Notes under the pieces: model-generated
What the model was told of the DNA's origin: nothing
Databases searched by the model: none
What the model saw: the letters and a program-made list of their open reading frames with translations, nothing else
Shown: positions 88-10,586 of the stretch, piece by piece
Layout of the letters: the number at the start of each line of letters is the position of its first letter
Numbering within the stretch: the stretch's first letter is position 1
From: a virus
Taxonomy: Duplodnaviria > Heunggongvirae > Uroviricota > Caudoviricetes
Virus record (IMG/VR): IMGVR_UViG_2693429700_000023
Strand: one strand, 5' to 3'
Length of the DNA: 10,586 nucleotides
Program-made: the position numbers and the translations under genes

Positions 88-141
88 CCTGTTTACCTCT
101 TTCTCAGGGAGTTTAGTCTCCAGGATTTCCGGGGCGGTTCA
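1..141 (-). mobile_element. IS3-family insertion sequence, one end only (element continues beyond window start)
   Basis: Read on the minus strand from 141, the sequence begins 5'-TGAACCGCCCCGG, a TG-initiated terminal inverted repeat typical of IS3-family elements. It is followed by an SD (AAAGAGG) and an ATG at 87..85 opening a transposase OrfA-like ORF. The exact IS name cannot be assigned without ISfinder. Confidence 0.6.
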
Positions 142-887
142 TTCTGCATTGCTGCTGTTGGTGCATATGCTGACGTTAACGCATTTGCTCGGCTAATATC
201 CTGCCCTCTCGCCTGAAGTGCTTCGCCAGCCTGATTGCTGCGGATTGTCTCTGCCAACTCGCCGCGCTCAATATCCCGACCTTCCATTTGATCTTTGATA
301 TCGAAATACTTCTCATGACCGAGAGAAAACAGCGCCAGATTACCTGCGAAATGCTGGAAGCCCTGCGGGTCATTAACCTGCATTTCAGCAATAGTTTCTG
401 GAGGGATACCTAAACGACGCATCTCCTGCTCATTATCCATCATGAACCTGCCAAATGCGCCCGGACCAAGCGATGAGGCTACCTGTGCTTTGAGCGCCAG
501 ATTGCCATAATCATCCCTTTGAGCATCATCGACATAACTCATCCCTTTACGGACTTCCTCAAACTCTTCTGGGAATGCTGTAATAAGATTACGCATCTGC
601 TCCCTGTCGCCGGACGCATAAGCATCTGCATAACCTTTCTGGAATGCCGCTTTACGCTCCTGCTGTTGCTGCTGCTTATAAATATCAGCAACTCCAGCCA
701 GACCACGTAACGCGGTCAGACCAACGTTATTTGCACCTGAGCGAGCCAGTTCATTGTTTTCGCGGATCAGACCAAGCGTTGCGTTAATGTCGCTTGCCTT
801 TGGCGCATTCTCATTTTGCGTACCGATGCCAGCCAGAAAACCACCAGAATTAATACCCTGTTGCCACGTAGCCATTGATTTACCCAC
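93..887 (-). CDS. Hypothetical protein (~260 aa), 3' end disrupted by the IS insertion
   Basis: Long minus-strand ORF from the track. The track start at 887 is a GTG; the first ATG is at 875 (MATWQQGINSGG...). The last 16 codons (EPPRKSWRLNSLRKR) are encoded by the IS terminal repeat (93..141), so the native C-terminus is lost or replaced. Contains a QQQQQ run from a CTG/CAG tract near 661..676. No family recognised. Confidence 0.5.
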   Translation of the reverse strand: MGKSMATWQQGINSGGFLAGIGTQNENAPKASDINATLGLIRENNELARSGANNVGLTALRGLAGVADIYKQQQQQERKAAFQKGYADAYASGDREQMRNLITAFPEEFEEVRKGMSYVDDAQRDDYGNLALKAQVASSLGPGAFGRFMMDNEQEMRRLGIPPETIAEMQVNDPQGFQHFAGNLALFSLGHEKYFDIKDQMEGRDIERGELAETIRSNQAGEALQARGQDISRANALTSAYAPTAAMQNEPPRKSWRLNSLRKR

Positions 888-1145: not shown

Positions 1146-1181
1146 CACAAAAAAATGCCACCGCTCAGTAGCTGGTGGCAT
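1146..1181 (-). terminator. Intrinsic (rho-independent) terminator, minus strand
   Basis: The minus strand reads ATGCCACC-AGCTACTGAGC-GGTGGCAT followed by TTTTTTTGTG: an 8-bp GC-rich stem, 11-nt loop and 7-T tract. It lies downstream of the primase/ori region and upstream of the 57-aa gene promoter. Confidence 0.5.
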
Positions 1182-1451: not shown

Positions 1452-1500
1452 CACTCTCTGATGCCAGCCAGGTGTTGTGCGCATCAATTCAGTCACATTG

Positions 1501-1613
1501 TGTTGGTTCAAAATACCGTGTTGTTGGTTCAGTGTTGGTTCAATAAAAAGAATAAAATCCTTATAAAACAATACTCTTTACAAATTGAACCAACTGAACC
1601 AACTGAACCAACA
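1501..1613. repeat. Iteron array (candidate origin of replication): 3 direct and 3 inverted copies of TGTTGGTTCA flanking an AT-rich spacer
   Basis: TGTTGGTTCA occurs at 1501..1510, 1522..1531 and 1533..1542. A ~43-bp AT-rich stretch follows (1543..1585), then three tandem TGAACCAAC units (the reverse complement) at 1586..1612. The array lies immediately downstream of the primase-helicase stop (1638). Confidence 0.6.
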
Positions 1614-1637
1614 CCTTTTCTACGCACATGAAGAAGC

Positions 1638-4394
1638 TCATTCTTCAGATGAGTTGTAATCTCCTGGCTGGTAATTGAGTACATAAACGTTTATTTGTCG
1701 TCCCTGAATACGTGGTGATTTTCTTTGGTATCCACGACCGCTGTTTGGTGGGGTTAGCATCCCGGCTTTTTTCAACACTTCAGCAAACTGTTTTGCGTTG
1801 AAACCACATGCGATCTCCTTTTCAAATGTGGCCGGGAATGTGTAGAAAATCATTGGGCTTTCGTCATGTTCTCCACGCTGACGGTATCCGGCTAAATCTT
1901 TGATTGGCAAATCTGCCGGGCTGTATGGAAATGGTGCAAAACGGCTAAGCCCATAGGCATTAAGAAATGCCTCCGTTTGTTCAATAATCTGCTGATGTTC
2001 TTTGTTACCTGTGCCGAACTCGCGCAACCATGCGTTATAGCTGTGCTGTATCGCATCACGGCATGTCTGAGCATCCCAGCCTGTTACAACCTCGCCTAAC
2101 AGCAATGCGGCCTCCAGAATGGCAAATCGCGCGGCTACACGGTGAACCTGCTCACCATAATCGGATGGAATCAGGCTTCTCCATCTGCTTTCGCAGTCAC
2201 GAACAGTTTTAATAGCCTGTTGCTGGTGGTCTGCCAGCCATTTAATCCACTCACGCCCGGCTGCGCCGTGGTGATGCTGGTAAGCGTCTTTCAGTGCGTC
2301 TGCGTGCTGTTTTCCGTTCTGGTAATCGTGAAAGCGTACTGCTTTACTCAACGGAATATTCAGCAGTCGCACCAGTTGCCCGGCTTTGGTTTTTCGCCCG
2401 GAAGTAGCGATAAATGTTTCTAAATCCATTTCTCCAGTGCTGATTGCCACTGTACGCCAGCGTTTTAGATCCCGGTTTCCACCATCTTTAGCGCCTTGCA
2501 GTTTCCCTACACCGTTAAATAACGCATAGGCAGACTGTGAAACACTGACAGGATCAGCGCCCTGACCAACTTCATCAAGCGGCATTAGTCCGTCATTGTG
2601 GGCGGCGGCTTCATTTGCCAGCCCCAGCGCGGTTCCGTACCACGTCAGCCGCAGTAAATCAGGGTTGCCGTATAAGCTGCTCGCCACGTTTGCCGTGGTG
2701 GTCTTACCTGCGCTCGACTGCTCATAGAAATGAATGCCGAACCCGTCAGCGCCCACCAGCCCAATCAATGGCGCTGCCAGTGCTGCGCCGATCCCGATCA
2801 TCATTGAATAGTTACCAAAGGCCAGACGCGCCACGTTATCACGCCAGCTTTTCGCGCTCCCTGAGACGGTATATCCGGCTGCGGCTGAGCTTCTCCCGCT
2901 GAACAGCACAGGATTTTCAGGTGTTCCGATGATTTCCCCATCAGGCATGATGTACGCTCCGCATTGCCAGCCAGTGGCATGAGCAACACGCCACAATTCA
3001 CGAGAGCCACTGCGTTGTAGCCAGTCTGCCAGTATTGCTCTGAGGCTGCTTTTGGTCGTGACATTTACCCCACCAGCTTTAAGTGTGCGCCATCCTTCAC
3101 GTTCACCAATATCAGCCAGTGGAATGGCAGCGGTTGTCGGCGTTTCAGAACCAAACGACAGCCAGCGAAGAATGAGATACTGGTCTTTATCGTCTCTGCC
3201 AGTACCGATAACGCTTAACGGAGAACATAACCAGCTTTCGTTATTGATGATTTCTCCACTCTGGCTGTCAGCTCTCGGAGATACCCAATAAATACCATCC
3301 TCGCGGCTTTCTATTCTTGGTTTCAGTGGGTCGGTATCCATAACCTTAAAATCGCTTCCCTCAATGGTCTGTGGCTGCTGTTTCACGCCATTACCCTGTG
3401 GTTGGTACATTGACTTATTGAACGCTTCTGTGGCGCATTTAATGCCGTGTTTTTGGTGGTAATCATTCCAGTCTGCTTTGTGATCTGTCGGGGGTAATGC
3501 CACCCATCCAGAAACAGATAAAGCTGCTTTTTCTGCTGCTATTCTCCCCGTGTTTTGTCTTCCTTCGCTGTGGTCGTTATCCGCAGCAATGATGATTTGT
3601 GCTGAAGGAAATTTATCCCGCAGTACCTGGGCGACATATAACAGGTTCCCGGCATCAATCGCCGCCACTGTCAGCGATTCTGGACGAATTAAATGGGCAG
3701 ATAATGCCGTTGCCAGCCCTTCTGCGATTAAGATGCTCTGTGTTGTTTCTGGTGCGTTTATGGCGTGATATGCCCCTCGCTTTGCTGAACCTGTCAGGAG
3801 TCTTTTTTCACCATGTGAGGTAATAGTCTGTGCTGCTGTGACTGCGCCGGATTTATCCACCAGCGCCAGCAACAGAGATCCATCGGGCAACACTGGGAAT
3901 GTAAAATCACCTACCCCTTTCGCAACCAGATAATCAGATTTGCCGTTTACAGCCTTTCTGCGCATGTCATCAAACTGACGGGAAAACGTATCCCGTCTTT
4001 GTTGTTCGTCCTTCTCTGCCCTTTTCAGGCGCTCCTGTTCGCGTCGCTGGCGCTCGGTTTCCAGTTGTTCCCGTTTCTGGCTGGTGGCTTCTGGTGTTTC
4101 CGTTGTCCGGTAATCAATACCCAGAACATCAGCGGCAAGAAGCGCCGCCTCTGTTGTGTCGCAGTTATTTACGCGTTTAATTAAATCCAGCCCATCACCA
4201 GCGCCGCACTGATTACAGATGAAGCTACCGCGCCCGTTGTCGTCGAACCGGAATCGATCTTTGCCCCCACATGCAGGGCAGGGAGCATGACGGCGAGGAG
4301 AGTCAGGGACATTTATGTTCAGACAGCCCAGCACATGAGGCCAGTTGTTTTCAGACGCACTGATAACCTGACGGATAAGATCAATGTTTCGCAT
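1638..4394 (-). CDS. Primase-helicase-like replication protein (N-terminal Zn-ribbon, TOPRIM, C-terminal P-loop/DUF927-like domain), 918 aa
   Basis: The N-terminus has CPACGG...CNQCG (CxxC-N17-CxxC zinc ribbon), then a charged ER-rich linker. The TOPRIM signatures are present: a conserved Glu (IAEGLATA) and DxD (IIIAADNDHSEGR). Further on is a deviant P-loop (SSAGKTT). SD GGGGG lies 5 nt upstream of the ATG at 4394. The family call is from motif recognition, not a search. Confidence 0.88.
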   Translation of the reverse strand: MRNIDLIRQVISASENNWPHVLGCLNINVPDSPRRHAPCPACGGKDRFRFDDNGRGSFICNQCGAGDGLDLIKRVNNCDTTEAALLAADVLGIDYRTTETPEATSQKREQLETERQRREQERLKRAEKDEQQRRDTFSRQFDDMRRKAVNGKSDYLVAKGVGDFTFPVLPDGSLLLALVDKSGAVTAAQTITSHGEKRLLTGSAKRGAYHAINAPETTQSILIAEGLATALSAHLIRPESLTVAAIDAGNLLYVAQVLRDKFPSAQIIIAADNDHSEGRQNTGRIAAEKAALSVSGWVALPPTDHKADWNDYHQKHGIKCATEAFNKSMYQPQGNGVKQQPQTIEGSDFKVMDTDPLKPRIESREDGIYWVSPRADSQSGEIINNESWLCSPLSVIGTGRDDKDQYLILRWLSFGSETPTTAAIPLADIGEREGWRTLKAGGVNVTTKSSLRAILADWLQRSGSRELWRVAHATGWQCGAYIMPDGEIIGTPENPVLFSGRSSAAAGYTVSGSAKSWRDNVARLAFGNYSMMIGIGAALAAPLIGLVGADGFGIHFYEQSSAGKTTTANVASSLYGNPDLLRLTWYGTALGLANEAAAHNDGLMPLDEVGQGADPVSVSQSAYALFNGVGKLQGAKDGGNRDLKRWRTVAISTGEMDLETFIATSGRKTKAGQLVRLLNIPLSKAVRFHDYQNGKQHADALKDAYQHHHGAAGREWIKWLADHQQQAIKTVRDCESRWRSLIPSDYGEQVHRVAARFAILEAALLLGEVVTGWDAQTCRDAIQHSYNAWLREFGTGNKEHQQIIEQTEAFLNAYGLSRFAPFPYSPADLPIKDLAGYRQRGEHDESPMIFYTFPATFEKEIACGFNAKQFAEVLKKAGMLTPPNSGRGYQRKSPRIQGRQINVYVLNYQPGDYNSSEE

Positions 4395-5483: not shown

Positions 5484-5674
5484 TTTTCACCCCCAAGAAT
5501 TACCAGCTCGGCACGGGCATCGTTAACCAAAGATGAGCACGCTTTAATCGCATCCACGACATCAGCAGCGTCCATTTCTTCAGCCGAAAGACTGACAGCA
5601 ACCAGGACAGCCGCTGCTTGCTCGATTAATTGAAGTGCGGACGTAAGGCGAGGGGTATTAATTGAGTTATTCAT
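5480..5674 (-). CDS. Hypothetical small protein (64 aa)
   Basis: The track ORF is 5480..5731; I prefer the internal ATG at 5674 ([10 protein letters not shown]...), which has SD GGGGG upstream and overlaps the upstream stop as ATGAATAA. Predicted helical and acidic. Confidence 0.45.
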   Translation of the reverse strand: MNNSINTPRLTSALQLIEQAAAVLVAVSLSAEEMDAADVVDAIKACSSLVNDARAELVILGGEK

Positions 5675-5885
5675 TGGTTGCCCCCGTTTTTCCTGGCATT
5701 TCGCCACCTTCCAGCAGGAAATGAACGTCACGAACGGCGAGATCCAATATCGCGAGTAACGCCTTCAGCCTTTCGTCTCGTGAGGGAGAGTTGCTCACCA
5801 GAATGTCGTTAATCACTTCTGTCAGTGTGATGATCTGGCTTGTGCGTTCGAGGGGATCCATATGCACATCGTAGGTTTTAATCAT
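5667..5885 (-). CDS. Hypothetical small protein (72 aa), modelled as a separate gene in the 3' part of the 355-codon ORF
   Basis: The internal ATG at 5885..5883 ([15 protein letters not shown]...) is preceded by a strong SD GGAGGTGG and overlaps the stop of the frame-B gene as ATGATTAA. Codon usage from here to the stop at 5667 looks coding. This is an alternative model to the full 355-aa ORF. Confidence 0.45.
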   Translation of the reverse strand: MIKTYDVHMDPLERTSQIITLTEVINDILVSNSPSRDERLKALLAILDLAVRDVHFLLEGGEMPGKTGATNE

Positions 5886-6734
5886 GTGCCACCTCCATGC
5901 GGATACGACCAGCAAAAAAGCAGACGTGATCGCGCACCAGAGAACGGCGAGCATCGCGTTCAGACTCGGCAGCAATATGATGAATTTTGGCGGTAATTGT
6001 CGGGCAATCGCGGCGAACTGCGGCGATAATCCAGATAAATTGCGGTTTTTGGGTAGGGGTAGTAGCCAGCATGTGGCAGCCTCCATTCGATAGCATGTAA
6101 CGCTACCACCGGAAACGCCAATTTCGCTGGTGGTAGCCCAGACAGGGTTGGCGTAACCGGCTCGAATGGATACCGGCGCTTCCGAAGAAGCCCCTGCCTG
6201 AGCCACCATTGATTGACAAAGGCGCTGGATTATACACCAACGCCCAAAAAATGGGTGAGTCAGACCTACGACATAAAAAAAGACGCTCGGCGCGTCATAT
6301 GTCGCCATTCGATTTACCAGGACGCCAATCCCGGCACCCGTTTTATGAGGTGCCTTATAACCATAAACCGTGTTGCCGCATAACGGCAAGCTCTTTTTTA
6401 TGGACTCCGAAAACTCGCTATTGGAAGCACCAGATGCACAGTACATCGCGCTCATTTCGTTAACGTCACGCGCGTGGACGAATGTTTTTGTGGAGTCACT
6501 ACACGAGCGGAAGACATCATCTACGACCAGAAATTTTCTGGCGCAGCCGCTGACCTTCTCAATGCTAATATCATCGCCCGAGATTTCTGATATGGTTAAG
6601 GCATCCGTTCCGACCACCAGCAAATGATAAACTTTGCTTGTATCTGCTGTATTAATGCCTGACTTTGCCGTCATATTGCTGGATTTTGGCGACATACCAG
6701 CCAGTGAAAATGTCTTCTTCTGGACGGTTAGCAT
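5667..6734 (-). CDS. Uninterrupted 355-codon ORF; the N-terminal ~220 codons look like a real unknown gene, 3' boundary unresolved
   Basis: ATG at 6734 has SD GGAGG 7 nt upstream and overlaps the upstream stop (ATGCTAA). The N-terminal region is protein-like and contains KFLVVDDVF (6510..6536). The frame stays open to 5667, but between about 6072 and 5886 the coding signal moves to another frame. The true product is therefore either a 355-aa fusion or a shorter protein with an unseen end. Confidence 0.45.
5878..6072 (-). CDS. Hypothetical small protein (64 aa) in a different frame from the 355-codon ORF
   Basis: Track ORF 5878..6096; I prefer the second ATG at 6072 ([16 protein letters not shown]...), which has SD GGAGG 7 nt upstream. 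This frame uses common codons with G-rich first positions, whereas the overlapping frame of the 355-codon ORF is Leu/Pro/Ser-rich with rare codons (CTA, TTA, CCC, CGA, ATA, AGG). Confidence 0.5.
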   Translation of the reverse strand: MLATTPTQKPQFIWIIAAVRRDCPTITAKIHHIAAESERDARRSLVRDHVCFFAGRIRMEVAHD

Positions 6735-7748: not shown

Positions 7749-8180
7749 TTAGGCGGCGTTAAACGCGTCCGGGTAGAGTTTCAGAATGTCGGCAATTTCC
7801 TGCTGAGAAAGTCCGTTGTGATCATTTATGCTCGCAAGATGGTTAACATGAGTGATCACTTTCAGAACATCACCACGGCAGGAGAAACGGTAGCGAAGGT
7901 GTGTTCCGATACCATCAGGATTCTTTTCGTCGATACGCTCCAGAGTGATTCCAAGCTGGCGTTCTAACTCTGTTGCATAGTTACGACCAGAAGACAGACG
8001 GCAGTAGCGAAGAATGTCATTTTCTGTCCATCCCTCTATACCAGTACGCAGCATATAGACTCTGGCACGATGCTTTTTCGGTGTGCGCTTTGGTGCTTGA
8101 AGGGATTTTGTCAGGGGCGTAACATCAGATACGCGAATATCTGAATTAGCCGCCTGTAATGGGCGGTTTTTCTTTTCCAT
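7749..8180 (-). CDS. Hypothetical protein (143 aa)
   Basis: Track ORF. Its ATG at 8180 shares one base with the alpA stop (TGATG) and is preceded by GAGGTGG encoded in the alpA C-terminus. Basic N-terminus; no family recognised. Confidence 0.55.
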   Translation of the reverse strand: MEKKNRPLQAANSDIRVSDVTPLTKSLQAPKRTPKKHRARVYMLRTGIEGWTENDILRYCRLSSGRNYATELERQLGITLERIDEKNPDGIGTHLRYRFSCRGDVLKVITHVNHLASINDHNGLSQQEIADILKLYPDAFNAA

Positions 8181-8383
8181 CAGGCCACCTCGTCTCTAGA
8201 TTCTAATATACACTTCTCAATCCATTCATCTATTTCAGACTCAACAAAAGCAATTGCCCGACTTCCAATTTTTACCTGTTTAGGGAACCTCCCCTGACTA
8301 ATAAGACGATAAATCCATGCTTTGCTATAACCAGTTCGCCTTTGAACTTCAGAGAGACGAATTAATGAATTGTAATTAGCCAT
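8180..8383 (-). CDS. alpA: AlpA-family (prophage regulatory / excisionase-like HTH) transcriptional regulator, 67 aa
   Basis: A small protein with an HTH-like core (IRLSEVQRRTGYSKAWIYRLISQGRFPKQVKIGSRAIAFVESEIDEW) resembling AlpA-type regulators, placed directly downstream of an integrase remnant as in P4-like and PICI-like elements. Confidence 0.75.
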   Translation of the reverse strand: MANYNSLIRLSEVQRRTGYSKAWIYRLISQGRFPKQVKIGSRAIAFVESEIDEWIEKCILESRDEVA

Positions 8384-8662: not shown

Positions 8663-8977
8663 TCAGCGCCGTAGATTCATATTTGAATCATTGTATGTTT
8701 CCCGGGCAATCTTTTCCTCTCGTTTCGCTTCCATCGGATCGATACCACCAGCGATACCTCTTTTCGCATCTTCACGTTTTGCCCGAGCATCGGCTAGAGT
8801 AACCTCAGGATACACACCTAGTGCCAATAGCTTCTCTTTACCAGCTACACGATATTTAAGTCGCCAGTATTTACCTCCATTAGGTTTTACCAAGAGATAC
8901 AAACCGCCACCATCGGCCAGCTTGTAAGCCTTCTCTTTTGGCTTGGCTGTGTCTATTTGACGGGCATTGAGTTTCAC
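8663..8977 (-). pseudogene. Tyrosine integrase (P4-family) remnant: N-terminal arm-binding region only, 104 codons
   Basis: The ORF (GTG start at 8977, SD GGAGGT upstream) encodes KLNARQIDTAKPKEKAYKLADGGGLYLLVKPNGGKYWRLKYR..., which resembles the N-terminal arm-type DNA-binding domain of tRNA-associated integrases. Full-length enzymes are about 400 aa, and only 279 bp remain before alpA, so the catalytic domain is absent. Confidence 0.7.
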
Positions 8978-9042: not shown

Positions 9043-9125
9043 TTTGAGGGACTTTAGTAGACGTCAAAAGACGAACGGGGCTTTAATACGCGGATTATAA
9101 GGGGTTTTGAAAGACTTTAGTAGAC
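9043..9125. repeat. Direct repeats in the attL-proximal arm (candidate arm-type integrase or accessory-protein binding sites)
   Basis: TTTGAGGGACTTTAGTAGAC (9043..9062) and TTTGAAAGACTTTAGTAGAC (9106..9125) match at 18 of 20 positions. Nearby, TACCCCCAT occurs twice (9010..9018 and 9022..9030), with an inverted copy (GGGGGTA) at 8980..8986 next to the int start. Confidence 0.4.
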
Positions 9126-9142: not shown

Positions 9143-9218
9143 TGGTGCCGATAATAGGAGTCGAACCTACGACCTTCGCATTACGAATGCGCTGCTCTAC
9201 CAACTGAGCTATATCGGC
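9143..9218 (-). tRNA. thrW: tRNA-Thr (anticodon CGU)
   Basis: The reverse complement is a 76-nt tRNA with a 7-bp acceptor stem (GCCGATA/TATCGGC), a D-arm GCTCAGTTGGTAGAGC, anticodon loop TTCGTAA (anticodon CGT), T-arm GGTTCGACTCC and a 3' CCA. The CCA end (9143..9145) faces the mobile-element side. Confidence 0.95.
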
Positions 9219-9332: not shown

Positions 9333-10586
9333 TTACGCACGAATGGTGTAATCACCAATGCCGATCCACTTGTAAGTGGTCAGTGCTTCCAGCCCCATTG
9401 GGCCACGCGCGTGGAGTTTTTGTGTGCTTACCGCCACTTCCGCACCCAGACCAAACTGGCCGCCGTCGGTAAAACGCGTAGAGGCGTTAACGTAAACAGC
9501 GGACGAATCCACTTCGTTAACAAAACGCTGGGCGTTGCGCATATCGCGGGTCAGGATCGCATCGGAGTGTTGTGTGCCGTGTTCACGAATATGGGCGATG
9601 GCATCGTCAAGATCGCTGACGATTTTGACGTTCAAATCTAATGACAGAAACTCATCGTCATACTCTTCGGCTTTAACAGCAACCACCTTCGCAGGGCCTG
9701 CCTGCAACTGCGCCAGTGCAGCTGCATCTGCGTGTAATGTCACGCCGCTTTCCGCCATTTGTTTGCTTAATGCGGGCAGGAAGCTATCGGCGATGTTTTT
9801 ATTCACCAGCAACGTTTCAACCGTATTACATGTGCTCGGACGCTGAGTTTTCGCGTTGACGATCACTTTTAATGCTTCAGCGATCTCTACACTTTCATCA
9901 ACGTAAATATGGCATACGCCTATACCACCTGTGATCACCGGGATTGTCGACTGTTCACGGCACAGTTTATGCAAACCAGCGCCACCACGCGGGATCAGCA
10001 TGTCGATGTATTTATCCATACGCAGCATTTCACTGACCAGCGCACGGTCAGGATTATCAATCGCCTGCACGGCACCCGCCGGTAAGCCGCAGGATTTCAG
10101 GGCGTCCTGAATCACCGCCACCGTTGCAGCGTTAGTGCGACACGTTTCTTTGCCACCGCGCAGGATCACCGCATTACCGGTTTTCAGGCACAGCGAAGCG
10201 ACATCAACCGTCACGTTCGGGCGCGCTTCATAAATCACGCCAATAACCCCCAGCGGTACGCGACGACGCTCAAGACGCAGGCCGCTGTCCAGTACGCTGC
10301 CATCGATTACCTGCCCCACCGGATCGGCGAGGTTACACACCTGGCGCACATCATCGGCAATGCCTTTCAGCCGTGCGGGCGTCAGTGCCAGACGGTCAAG
10401 CATCGCTTCGCCAAGGCCATTGGCACGCGCGTCAGCAACATCCTGGGCGTTAGCGTTGAGGATGATTTCGCTTTGTGCTTCCAGTTCATCGGCGATTTTT
10501 TCCAGCACGCGATTTTTTTCGCGGCTGGAGAGTTGCGCTAATTTATACGAGGCTTGCTTCGCGGCAATGCCCATTTGTTCCAGCAT
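9333..10586 (-). CDS. proA: Gamma-glutamyl phosphate reductase (glutamate-5-semialdehyde dehydrogenase), 417 aa
   Basis: The translation ([38 protein letters not shown] ... [14 protein letters not shown]) matches enterobacterial ProA as I recall it, at the correct 417-aa length. The ATG is the last three bases of the window. Confidence 0.95.

Follow-up and report, generated by a model that had tools for sequence, protein, structure and literature searches.

The stretch of DNA analysed here, 10,586 nt in length and referred to below as the window, is a segment of E. coli chromosome from the thrW-proA locus (proA at 9333-10586(-)). It raises the question of what is encoded in a 585-bp non-coding stretch (1054-1637) that follows a gene for a 918-aa protein, Pri-Rep, and that holds 2 opposed sets of short repeats. 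The first-pass annotation read these repeats as a probable replication origin. Every prediction of that reading that could be tested at the level of sequence has held, namely a layout that recurs in dozens of species, covariation between the repeats (iterons) and a wing peptide of the protein, and a SaPIbov-like fold. We consider it very probable that the array at 1502-1612 is the cognate replication origin of a PICI-like island at thrW, working like the origins of SaPIs and PICIs. Besides the 3 observations just named, this reading is drawn from the occurrence of the array beyond chance, its match to validated PICI and SaPI origins (PMC6092414, PMC9371898), PICI synteny, the existence of circular relatives and the lack of a DnaA box. 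Coordinates of the features discussed below are collected in Table 1.

Table 1. Features of the window and of the second array in relatives, with positions and strands.
Feature	Position	Strand	Remarks
gp20-like gene	93-887	-	interrupted by an IS3-family element, whose end is at position 140
Terminator-like hairpin and T run	1157..1172	-	beyond the array, following the orientation of the primase gene; consensus scan only
Conserved CCTGGCTGGCA motif	1464..1474	-	just past the array; precedes the second array in many relatives (alignment of downstream regions)
Gene-distal iteron set	1502..1542	+	three GTTGGTTCA (1502-1510, 1523-1531, 1534-1542); spacing 21 and 11 nt; opposed to the proximal set
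AT-rich spacer, putative DNA-unwinding element	1543..1585		43 nt, 16% GC
Gene-proximal iteron set	1586..1612	-	three contiguous GTTGGTTCA, 9-nt period (1586-1594, 1595-1603, 1604-1612)
Linker from stop codon to iterons	1614..1637	-	loosely conserved CAYRTG-type box, here CTTCATGTGCGTAG
Pri-Rep gene, 918 aa	1638..4394	-	primase zinc ribbon 34-69, Toprim 221-318, DUF927 helicase 365-643 (Pfam); C-terminal winged-helix domain 791-918
Coding region of the C-terminal winged-helix domain (residues 791-918)	1641..2024	-	putative iteron-binding domain
Codons of the wing hairpin, residues 889-900 (YQRKSPRIQGRQ)	1695..1730	-	follows helix 867-876; putative determinant of iteron specificity
C4 antisense RNA and isrK	6126-6213, 6276-6353	-, -	Rfam gathering-level, 79.5 and 67.1 bits; inside the 'Ash' ORF 5667-6734
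AlpA-family regulator	8180..8383	-	Pfam PF05930, E 7e-20; PHROG 'excisionase and transcriptional regulator'
Integrase remnant, N-terminal arm-DNA-binding domain only	8663..8977	-	Pfam PF13356, E 9e-30
tRNA-Thr (CGT), thrW	9143..9218	-	integration site, left end of the island; ARAGORN, Rfam, RefSeq annotation of relatives
Array 2	L082 8436-8556; L084 2999-3119; L090 10687-10786		all outside the window

The repeats had been described as three direct copies of a 10-mer and three reverse-complement copies, and the positions given for them are borne out. The 10-mer TGTTGGTTCA is exact on the + strand at 1501, 1522 and 1533; on the - strand it is exact at 1604-1613 and has A, not T, as its first base at 1595-1604 and 1586-1595. 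The unit that is exact in 6/6 copies is the 9-mer GTTGGTTCA, so that 3 + 3 exact 9-mers in opposed orientation flank the AT-rich region. The ~43-bp AT-rich stretch that had been noted between the sets was likewise found, and of all 43-nt duplexes in the window it has the lowest stability (rank 1/10,544 by nearest-neighbour energy). The description of the array as symmetric did not stand: its halves differ in spacing (9/9 vs 11/21), and this asymmetry is kept in relatives. Beyond the array, the window holds a single match with at most 1 mismatch, at position 156. A total of 7 matches was not reached in any of 200 dinucleotide-preserving shuffles (mean, 0.82), and these shuffles, together with the conservation described below, rule out a chance origin of the array. 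A distance of 24 nt separates the array from the stop codon (1638-1640) of the 918-aa ORF, and this location immediately 3' of pri-rep is the same in ~45 relatives. The DnaA box (TTWTNCACA) is absent from the whole 10.6-kb window, which fits, and would be compatible with, a mechanism independent of the host initiator. In the AT-rich spacer itself, a TTATAAGG-like conserved motif recurs.

The array strand is predicted to fold into a long hairpin (-51 kcal/mol, z = -5.8 vs shuffles), and the interval from the stop codon to the array gave no canonical terminator in our scan. These 2 observations could be taken to mean that the array acts as an RNA or single-strand signal, that is, as a 3' hairpin of the primase transcript (a terminator, a stabiliser or a processing site) or as a single-strand initiation signal. 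We regard this as very improbable. Folding is expected of any inverted-repeat array, the copy numbers of the 2 sides are often unequal in relatives, and the conserved spacing of 9 vs 11/21 forces bulges in such a hairpin; moreover, the covariation of the repeat with a winged-helix peptide, described below, would be left unexplained. Consensus scanning found no promoters in or near the array. With the array read as an origin, the position of the terminator-like hairpin in Table 1 suggests that primase transcription may read through the origin. Also just past the array are 2 near-identical 15-nt palindromes 57 nt apart, 1377-1391 (TACGAAAATTTCGTA) and 1434-1448 (TACGAAAGTCTCGTA), which occupy the place where other genera have a second array. 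This pair may be the operator of a regulator.

A scan of one genome per bacterial species yielded 77 loci with relatives of the 918-aa protein. Nearly all of ~45 full-length Enterobacterales homologues (52-99% amino acid identity) share one layout, which starts 23-47 nt after the stop codon and consists of 1-4 copies of the iteron at a 9-nt period, an AT-rich spacer of ~43-55 nt and then 3-4 inverted copies spaced 11/21 nt; in a partial match, L061, there are up to 7 copies at the 9-nt period. This length and the AT-richness of the spacer are kept in all the iteron classes inspected. Copy numbers on the opposed sides are often unequal (2 vs 4, 4 vs 3, 7 vs 3 and 1 vs 3). The 31 loci that have the iteron of the window contain 200 exact copies in the first 350 nt past the stop codon, and a single copy was counted in the rest of their sequence (320 kb). 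When nine of these downstream regions were aligned, the iterons proved invariant and the flanks diverged. PerC or SSB directly follows the array in relatives. Within E. coli, a 261-bp region spanning the array is present in ~365/5,426 complete genomes. The origin reading would thus assign a function to a 585-bp non-coding stretch that is common in E. coli and whose layout recurs in many Enterobacterales.

The first-pass annotation had placed a primase-helicase beside the array, and Pfam agrees with this in detecting zinc ribbon, Toprim and DUF927 domains. Over the N-terminal 360 aa, the protein shares 33% identity with the primase domain of P4 alpha (E 1e-41), the alignment being confined to residues 7-361, and the helicase core from residue 401 to residue 813 matches the SaPI Rep chain 8tch by sequence (E 3.8e-12). 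With a P4-alpha-like N-terminal third and a SaPI-Rep-like helicase, the protein therefore corresponds to a P4-type primase fused to a SaPI-type Rep. The remaining C-terminal part gave no match in a Pfam search of residues 643-918, nor in a profile search of the C-terminal domain against PDB sequences. A first structure model (residues 699-918) was discarded for pLDDT values <50 in the last 120 aa, and a usable winged-helix model was obtained with a shorter query and a deeper alignment. In a fold search, the C-terminal domain of this predicted structure was closest to the iteron-binding SaPIbov Rep. The combination of a SaPI-Rep-type helicase with a C-terminal winged-helix domain is therefore found in Pri-Rep, the winged helix being taken from the predicted structure. 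In this way, a common and poorly annotated 'TOPRIM and DUF927' protein is linked to the experimentally studied SaPI Rep initiators.

An indication of which part of the protein might read the repeats comes from comparison of iteron classes. At least 7 classes were distinguished, the repeats seen being GTTGGTTCA, GTTGTCTCA, ACGGGTTAY, GTCGGTTCA, GGTCGGTTT, GTCGGGTAA, GTGGGTTAY (in L053) and ACTTATCCCA. Six classes are represented by a full-length protein in the alignment, and each has its own C-terminal peptide: QRKSPRIxG with GTTGGTTCA (class A), QGRV-RE(D/G)G with GTTGTCTCA (class B), KRKALK(R/K)(I/M)GG with ACGGGTTAY, TRK(T/S)LRIDG with GTCGGTTCA, TKKTLVVDG with GGTCGGTTT and TKKTLVHEG with GTCGGGTAA. 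Between residues 401 and 800, class-B proteins share 88-100% identity with the window protein, but at 890-897 they have QGRV-REDG where class A has QRKSPRIxG. Residues that do not overlap between class A (n=32) and class B (n=5) occupy 7 of the 918 columns, five of these being 891, 892, 893, 894 and 896, and class-A proteins down to ~61% overall identity retain both the peptide and the iteron. The class-specific residues map to the wing hairpin that follows helix 867-876. It is this covariation by itself that points to a cognate Rep-iteron specificity, and we infer from it that the wing (889-900) may determine which iteron is recognised. As a specificity rule, we propose that wing residues 891-896 pair with iteron positions 5-6; a rule of this kind could predict the compatibility of co-resident satellites or serve orthogonal replicons. 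Between the stop codon and the first iteron, a CAYRTG-type box, often the palindrome TCACATGTGA, was observed in all iteron classes (equivalent positions in L003-L059). Since this box is present in every class, the variable wing is probably not its reader.

SaPI Reps load themselves as helicases and bind short iterons by means of a C-terminal winged-helix domain (PMC9371898). In the SaPI origins, found directly 3' of rep, an AT-rich centre is flanked on each side by 2 or more iterons, the sides being in opposite orientation, and binding and melting need no ATP (PMC9371898). In the mechanism that we propose for the thrW island, Pri-Rep would recognise the 9-bp GTTGGTTCA iterons through the wing of its C-terminal winged-helix domain; Rep assemblies would bind both opposed iteron sets and melt the 43-bp AT-rich spacer; Rep would then load itself as a helicase, in which case neither DnaA nor a separate loader would be needed; and the fused primase would prime synthesis. 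Binding, melting, self-loading and initiation in the spacer (1543-1585) are all presumed steps of this scheme. There are also differences from the SaPI origins (SaPIbov1, SaPI1 and SaPI5; PDB 8tch; PMC9371898). The present array is from a Gram-negative host, has 9-mers where the SaPIs have penta- or hexanucleotides, is served by a protein with a Toprim/P4-alpha-type primase, has the fixed asymmetric spacing noted above, and is accompanied in many relatives by a second, mirror-image array.

Gram-negative PICIs have the same origin organisation directly 3' of pri-rep, and in EcCICFT073 the pri-rep-ori segment drives plasmid replication, for which the gene and ori are both required (PMC6092414). 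The thrW island and its relatives resemble these PICIs (Fillol-Salom 2018, PMC6092414) in the order int, alpA, Icd/DUF4222, pri-rep, ori, SSB/PerC, with PerC or SSB after the array as in CFT073, IHE3034, ATCC 25922 and 042. The likeness extends to the 2 iteron sets around an AT-rich region in EcCICFT073, where the first two iterons form a 9-nt tandem 14 nt after the stop. The iterons themselves differ, however (CTGTCTACC in EcCICFT073, GTTGGTTCA here), and BLASTP gave no detectable similarity between the Pri-Rep of the window and that of CFT073. A DUF927 Rep is found in none of the four published E. coli PICIs compared, all of which carry other Rep alleles. DUF927 proteins have been pooled into a PICI 'Primase' family (PMC10111431). 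The iteron sequence is absent from the supplements of PMC6092414, thrW is absent from the published E. coli PICI sites, and our literature search found no paper combining thrW and PICI. The origin design itself is published; the Rep allele, the iteron and the wing-iteron pairing were not found described in the literature searched. The picture of satellite replication is extended by these observations and not changed.

Classical iteron plasmids (pSC101, R6K, RK2 and F) have 17-22-bp direct repeats, DnaA boxes and host DnaB/DnaC loading. The array and its protein are similar to these systems in the presence of repeated initiator sites beside an AT-rich region and in a winged-helix initiator, but they fall outside the class in having opposed 9-mer sets, no DnaA box and an initiator that is itself a helicase.

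Phage P4 shares several features with the island: a homologous N-terminal primase, immunity RNAs of the C4/isrK type (identified here by Rfam), a P4-type integrase (42% identity) and iterons clustered right behind the gene, where an AT-rich gap lies between an inverted set and a 9-nt tandem pair; in intact relatives of the island there are, as in P4, 2 separated clusters. The C4 and isrK pair has the appearance of P4-type RNA immunity, here within an otherwise PICI-organised island. Pri-Rep is nevertheless not of the alpha type, because its helicase and C-terminal domain are of the DUF927/SaPI-Rep type and those of P4 are of the D5 type. The P4 iteron is TGTTCACC, and neither the psu-delta-sid operon nor epsilon had a match in the window or in the annotated relatives. 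Also, the P4 cluster that follows alpha is crr, which is not the site of initiation.

This last point introduces a serious rival to the origin reading, in which the array is a crr-like auxiliary site, bound by Rep and either required in cis or modulating copy number (through looping or handcuffing with a second array, array 2), and initiation occurs elsewhere, for example at array 2. P4 crr sits just after the alpha gene and a terminator and consists of an inverted pair, a ~35-nt AT-rich gap and a 9-nt tandem pair. It is a cis-required helper site whose true origin is 4.5 kb away, so that position alone is no proof of initiation at the array. Furthermore, array 2 was observed as a mirror image just upstream of PerC in intact E. 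coli relatives, with 21/21 spacing, an AT-rich spacer and 9/9 spacing. We nevertheless judge this rival unlikely. Roughly 26 of the ~45 relatives have the first array (array 1, the one in the window) alone, which argues that array 1 suffices. In many other genera array 2 is adjacent (within ~50 nt) and its spacer is GC-rich, whereas array 1 keeps an AT-rich one. At the 31 loci, the 4 kb to either side contained no distant iteron cluster, and an array 3' of rep is the origin in PICIs and SaPIs (PMC6092414, PMC9371898).

Array 1 remains, in our reading, the very probable origin, and array 2 may be considered beside it. The 2 arrays are 1.9 kb apart in a circular record and ~7.3-7.6 kb apart in chromosomal islands, and between them are a 57-aa ORF, P22-type gp20/gp16 genes and other cargo; the gp20/gp16 cargo was located between two iteron arrays at L001 3164-6735 and L084 6164-9735. 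The window shows array 1 only, and the region corresponding to array 2 of the relatives would lie beyond the IS element that ends the window. A more speculative extension has 2 parts, which we weigh jointly and regard as rather doubtful. First, array 1 would be half of a two-site system in which the inter-array DNA is a cargo slot, here with gp20/gp16 and Abi, and Rep bound to the two arrays would bring them together by looping or handcuffing, as with P4 ori/crr, setting copy number or marking a cassette exchanged with helper phages. Second, origin specificity would be set by a simple, engineerable code in the five-residue wing peptide (891-896).

Related elements with the same Rep and iterons have been deposited as circular records of 12.2 kb and 16 kb, for which no replicon type is given in PLSDB. 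The records show that circular forms of such elements occur, and these could be excised copies caught during induction rather than stable plasmids. The 16-kb record, from Klebsiella, is capsid-forming-PICI-like and has a DUF927 Rep and the same GTTGGTTCA iterons. The Klebsiella capsid-forming PICIs (e.g. circular NZ_CP069874.1) resemble the thrW island in the DUF927 helicase and C-terminal domain (71% identity over 355-907) and in the layout of the GTTGGTTCA array. They differ from it in a Rep of 711 aa that has no fused primase domain and in a full capsid and terminase module. Among deposited phage genomes, none carries the full-length 918-aa protein, and the sole strong match, in Klebsiella phage P12620-1, covers the helicase and C-terminal domain alone (residues 355-907). 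The P12620-1 locus (L081, 96080-103741, in a 106-kb record) encodes a DUF927 Rep with 70.9% identity over these residues and has GTTGGTTCA arrays. This Rep matches the window protein exactly as does the Rep of the 16-kb circle, and the phage record may include a co-assembled satellite.

The genes that surround the array are consistent with a PICI-like island. All but one of its ORFs are on the - strand, and the order int, alpA, pri-rep, with an AlpA-type regulator, is that of PICIs; an AntA-type antirepressor, a DUF4222 protein, the 'Ash' ORF and several small ORFs are also present. Capsid-morphogenesis and/or small terminase genes are core components of PICIs (PMC10085698), and in this respect the island departs from them, as there was no Pfam or PHROG match to capsid-morphogenesis or terS genes in the window, nor in the annotated L001 and L084. 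In place of these genes, the cargo consists of P22-type ejection genes, Abi and PerC. In the window, a 57-aa ORF and then the P22 gp20-like ejection-protein gene are found past the non-coding stretch. The ejection-protein cargo may be a sign of a helper phage of the P22/HK620 type or of a role in interference. The IS3-family end that interrupts the gp20-like gene occupies 1-140 and includes the start of a transposase ORF on the - strand; in relatives that lack the IS, the alignment begins at 141.

Loss of the integrase, as claimed by the first-pass annotation, was confirmed by comparison with a 99.9% identical relative (L001, strain BKQ37E), in which a full 404-aa integrase lies between the island and thrW. 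Relative to L001, ~1.26 kb is deleted from the window and the arm-binding domain alone remains; the gene is intact in 99.9% identical relatives at thrW. An arm-binding domain in the island, and the fact that arm-type sites are also ~10-bp direct or inverted repeats, could suggest that the array is a set of integrase arm sites or an attP-like recombination site. The probability of this is close to nil, and we have excluded it. Identical GTTGGTTCA iterons occur with three integrase lineages that are 26-28% identical to each other and that use different integration sites; the array always abuts the primase gene and not the island ends; and in P4 the annotated arm repeats are distinct from the iterons.

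The truncated integrase and the IS3-family insertion also bear on whether the module is still active. It could be a decayed relic, in which the array was an origin and the module is now inactive in its host, a proposal that concerns present activity and not the identity of the array. We think this extremely unlikely, because the 918-aa ORF is intact and 99-100% identical to copies in islands that have an integrase (99.5% to the copy in the circular 12-kb record), and 6/6 iterons are exact. On the reading that array 1 is a functional origin, an island that is unable to excise still has an intact pri-rep and array 1, and its induction by a helper phage, should it occur, could lead to over-replication of the thrW-proA neighbourhood in situ.

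The far end of the island is outside the window. A search of the window and L001 for attR, which would repeat the 3' end of thrW, found only a local 13-nt duplication beside the tRNA. It is a direct repeat, GACTTTAGTAGAC, present at 9050-9062 and 9113-9125. The repeat resembles the att core (…TTTTAGTAGACTTAGG…) of a Dickeya PICI at proA listed in Table S1 of PMC6092414 and, judged by this resemblance, may belong to the attachment site.
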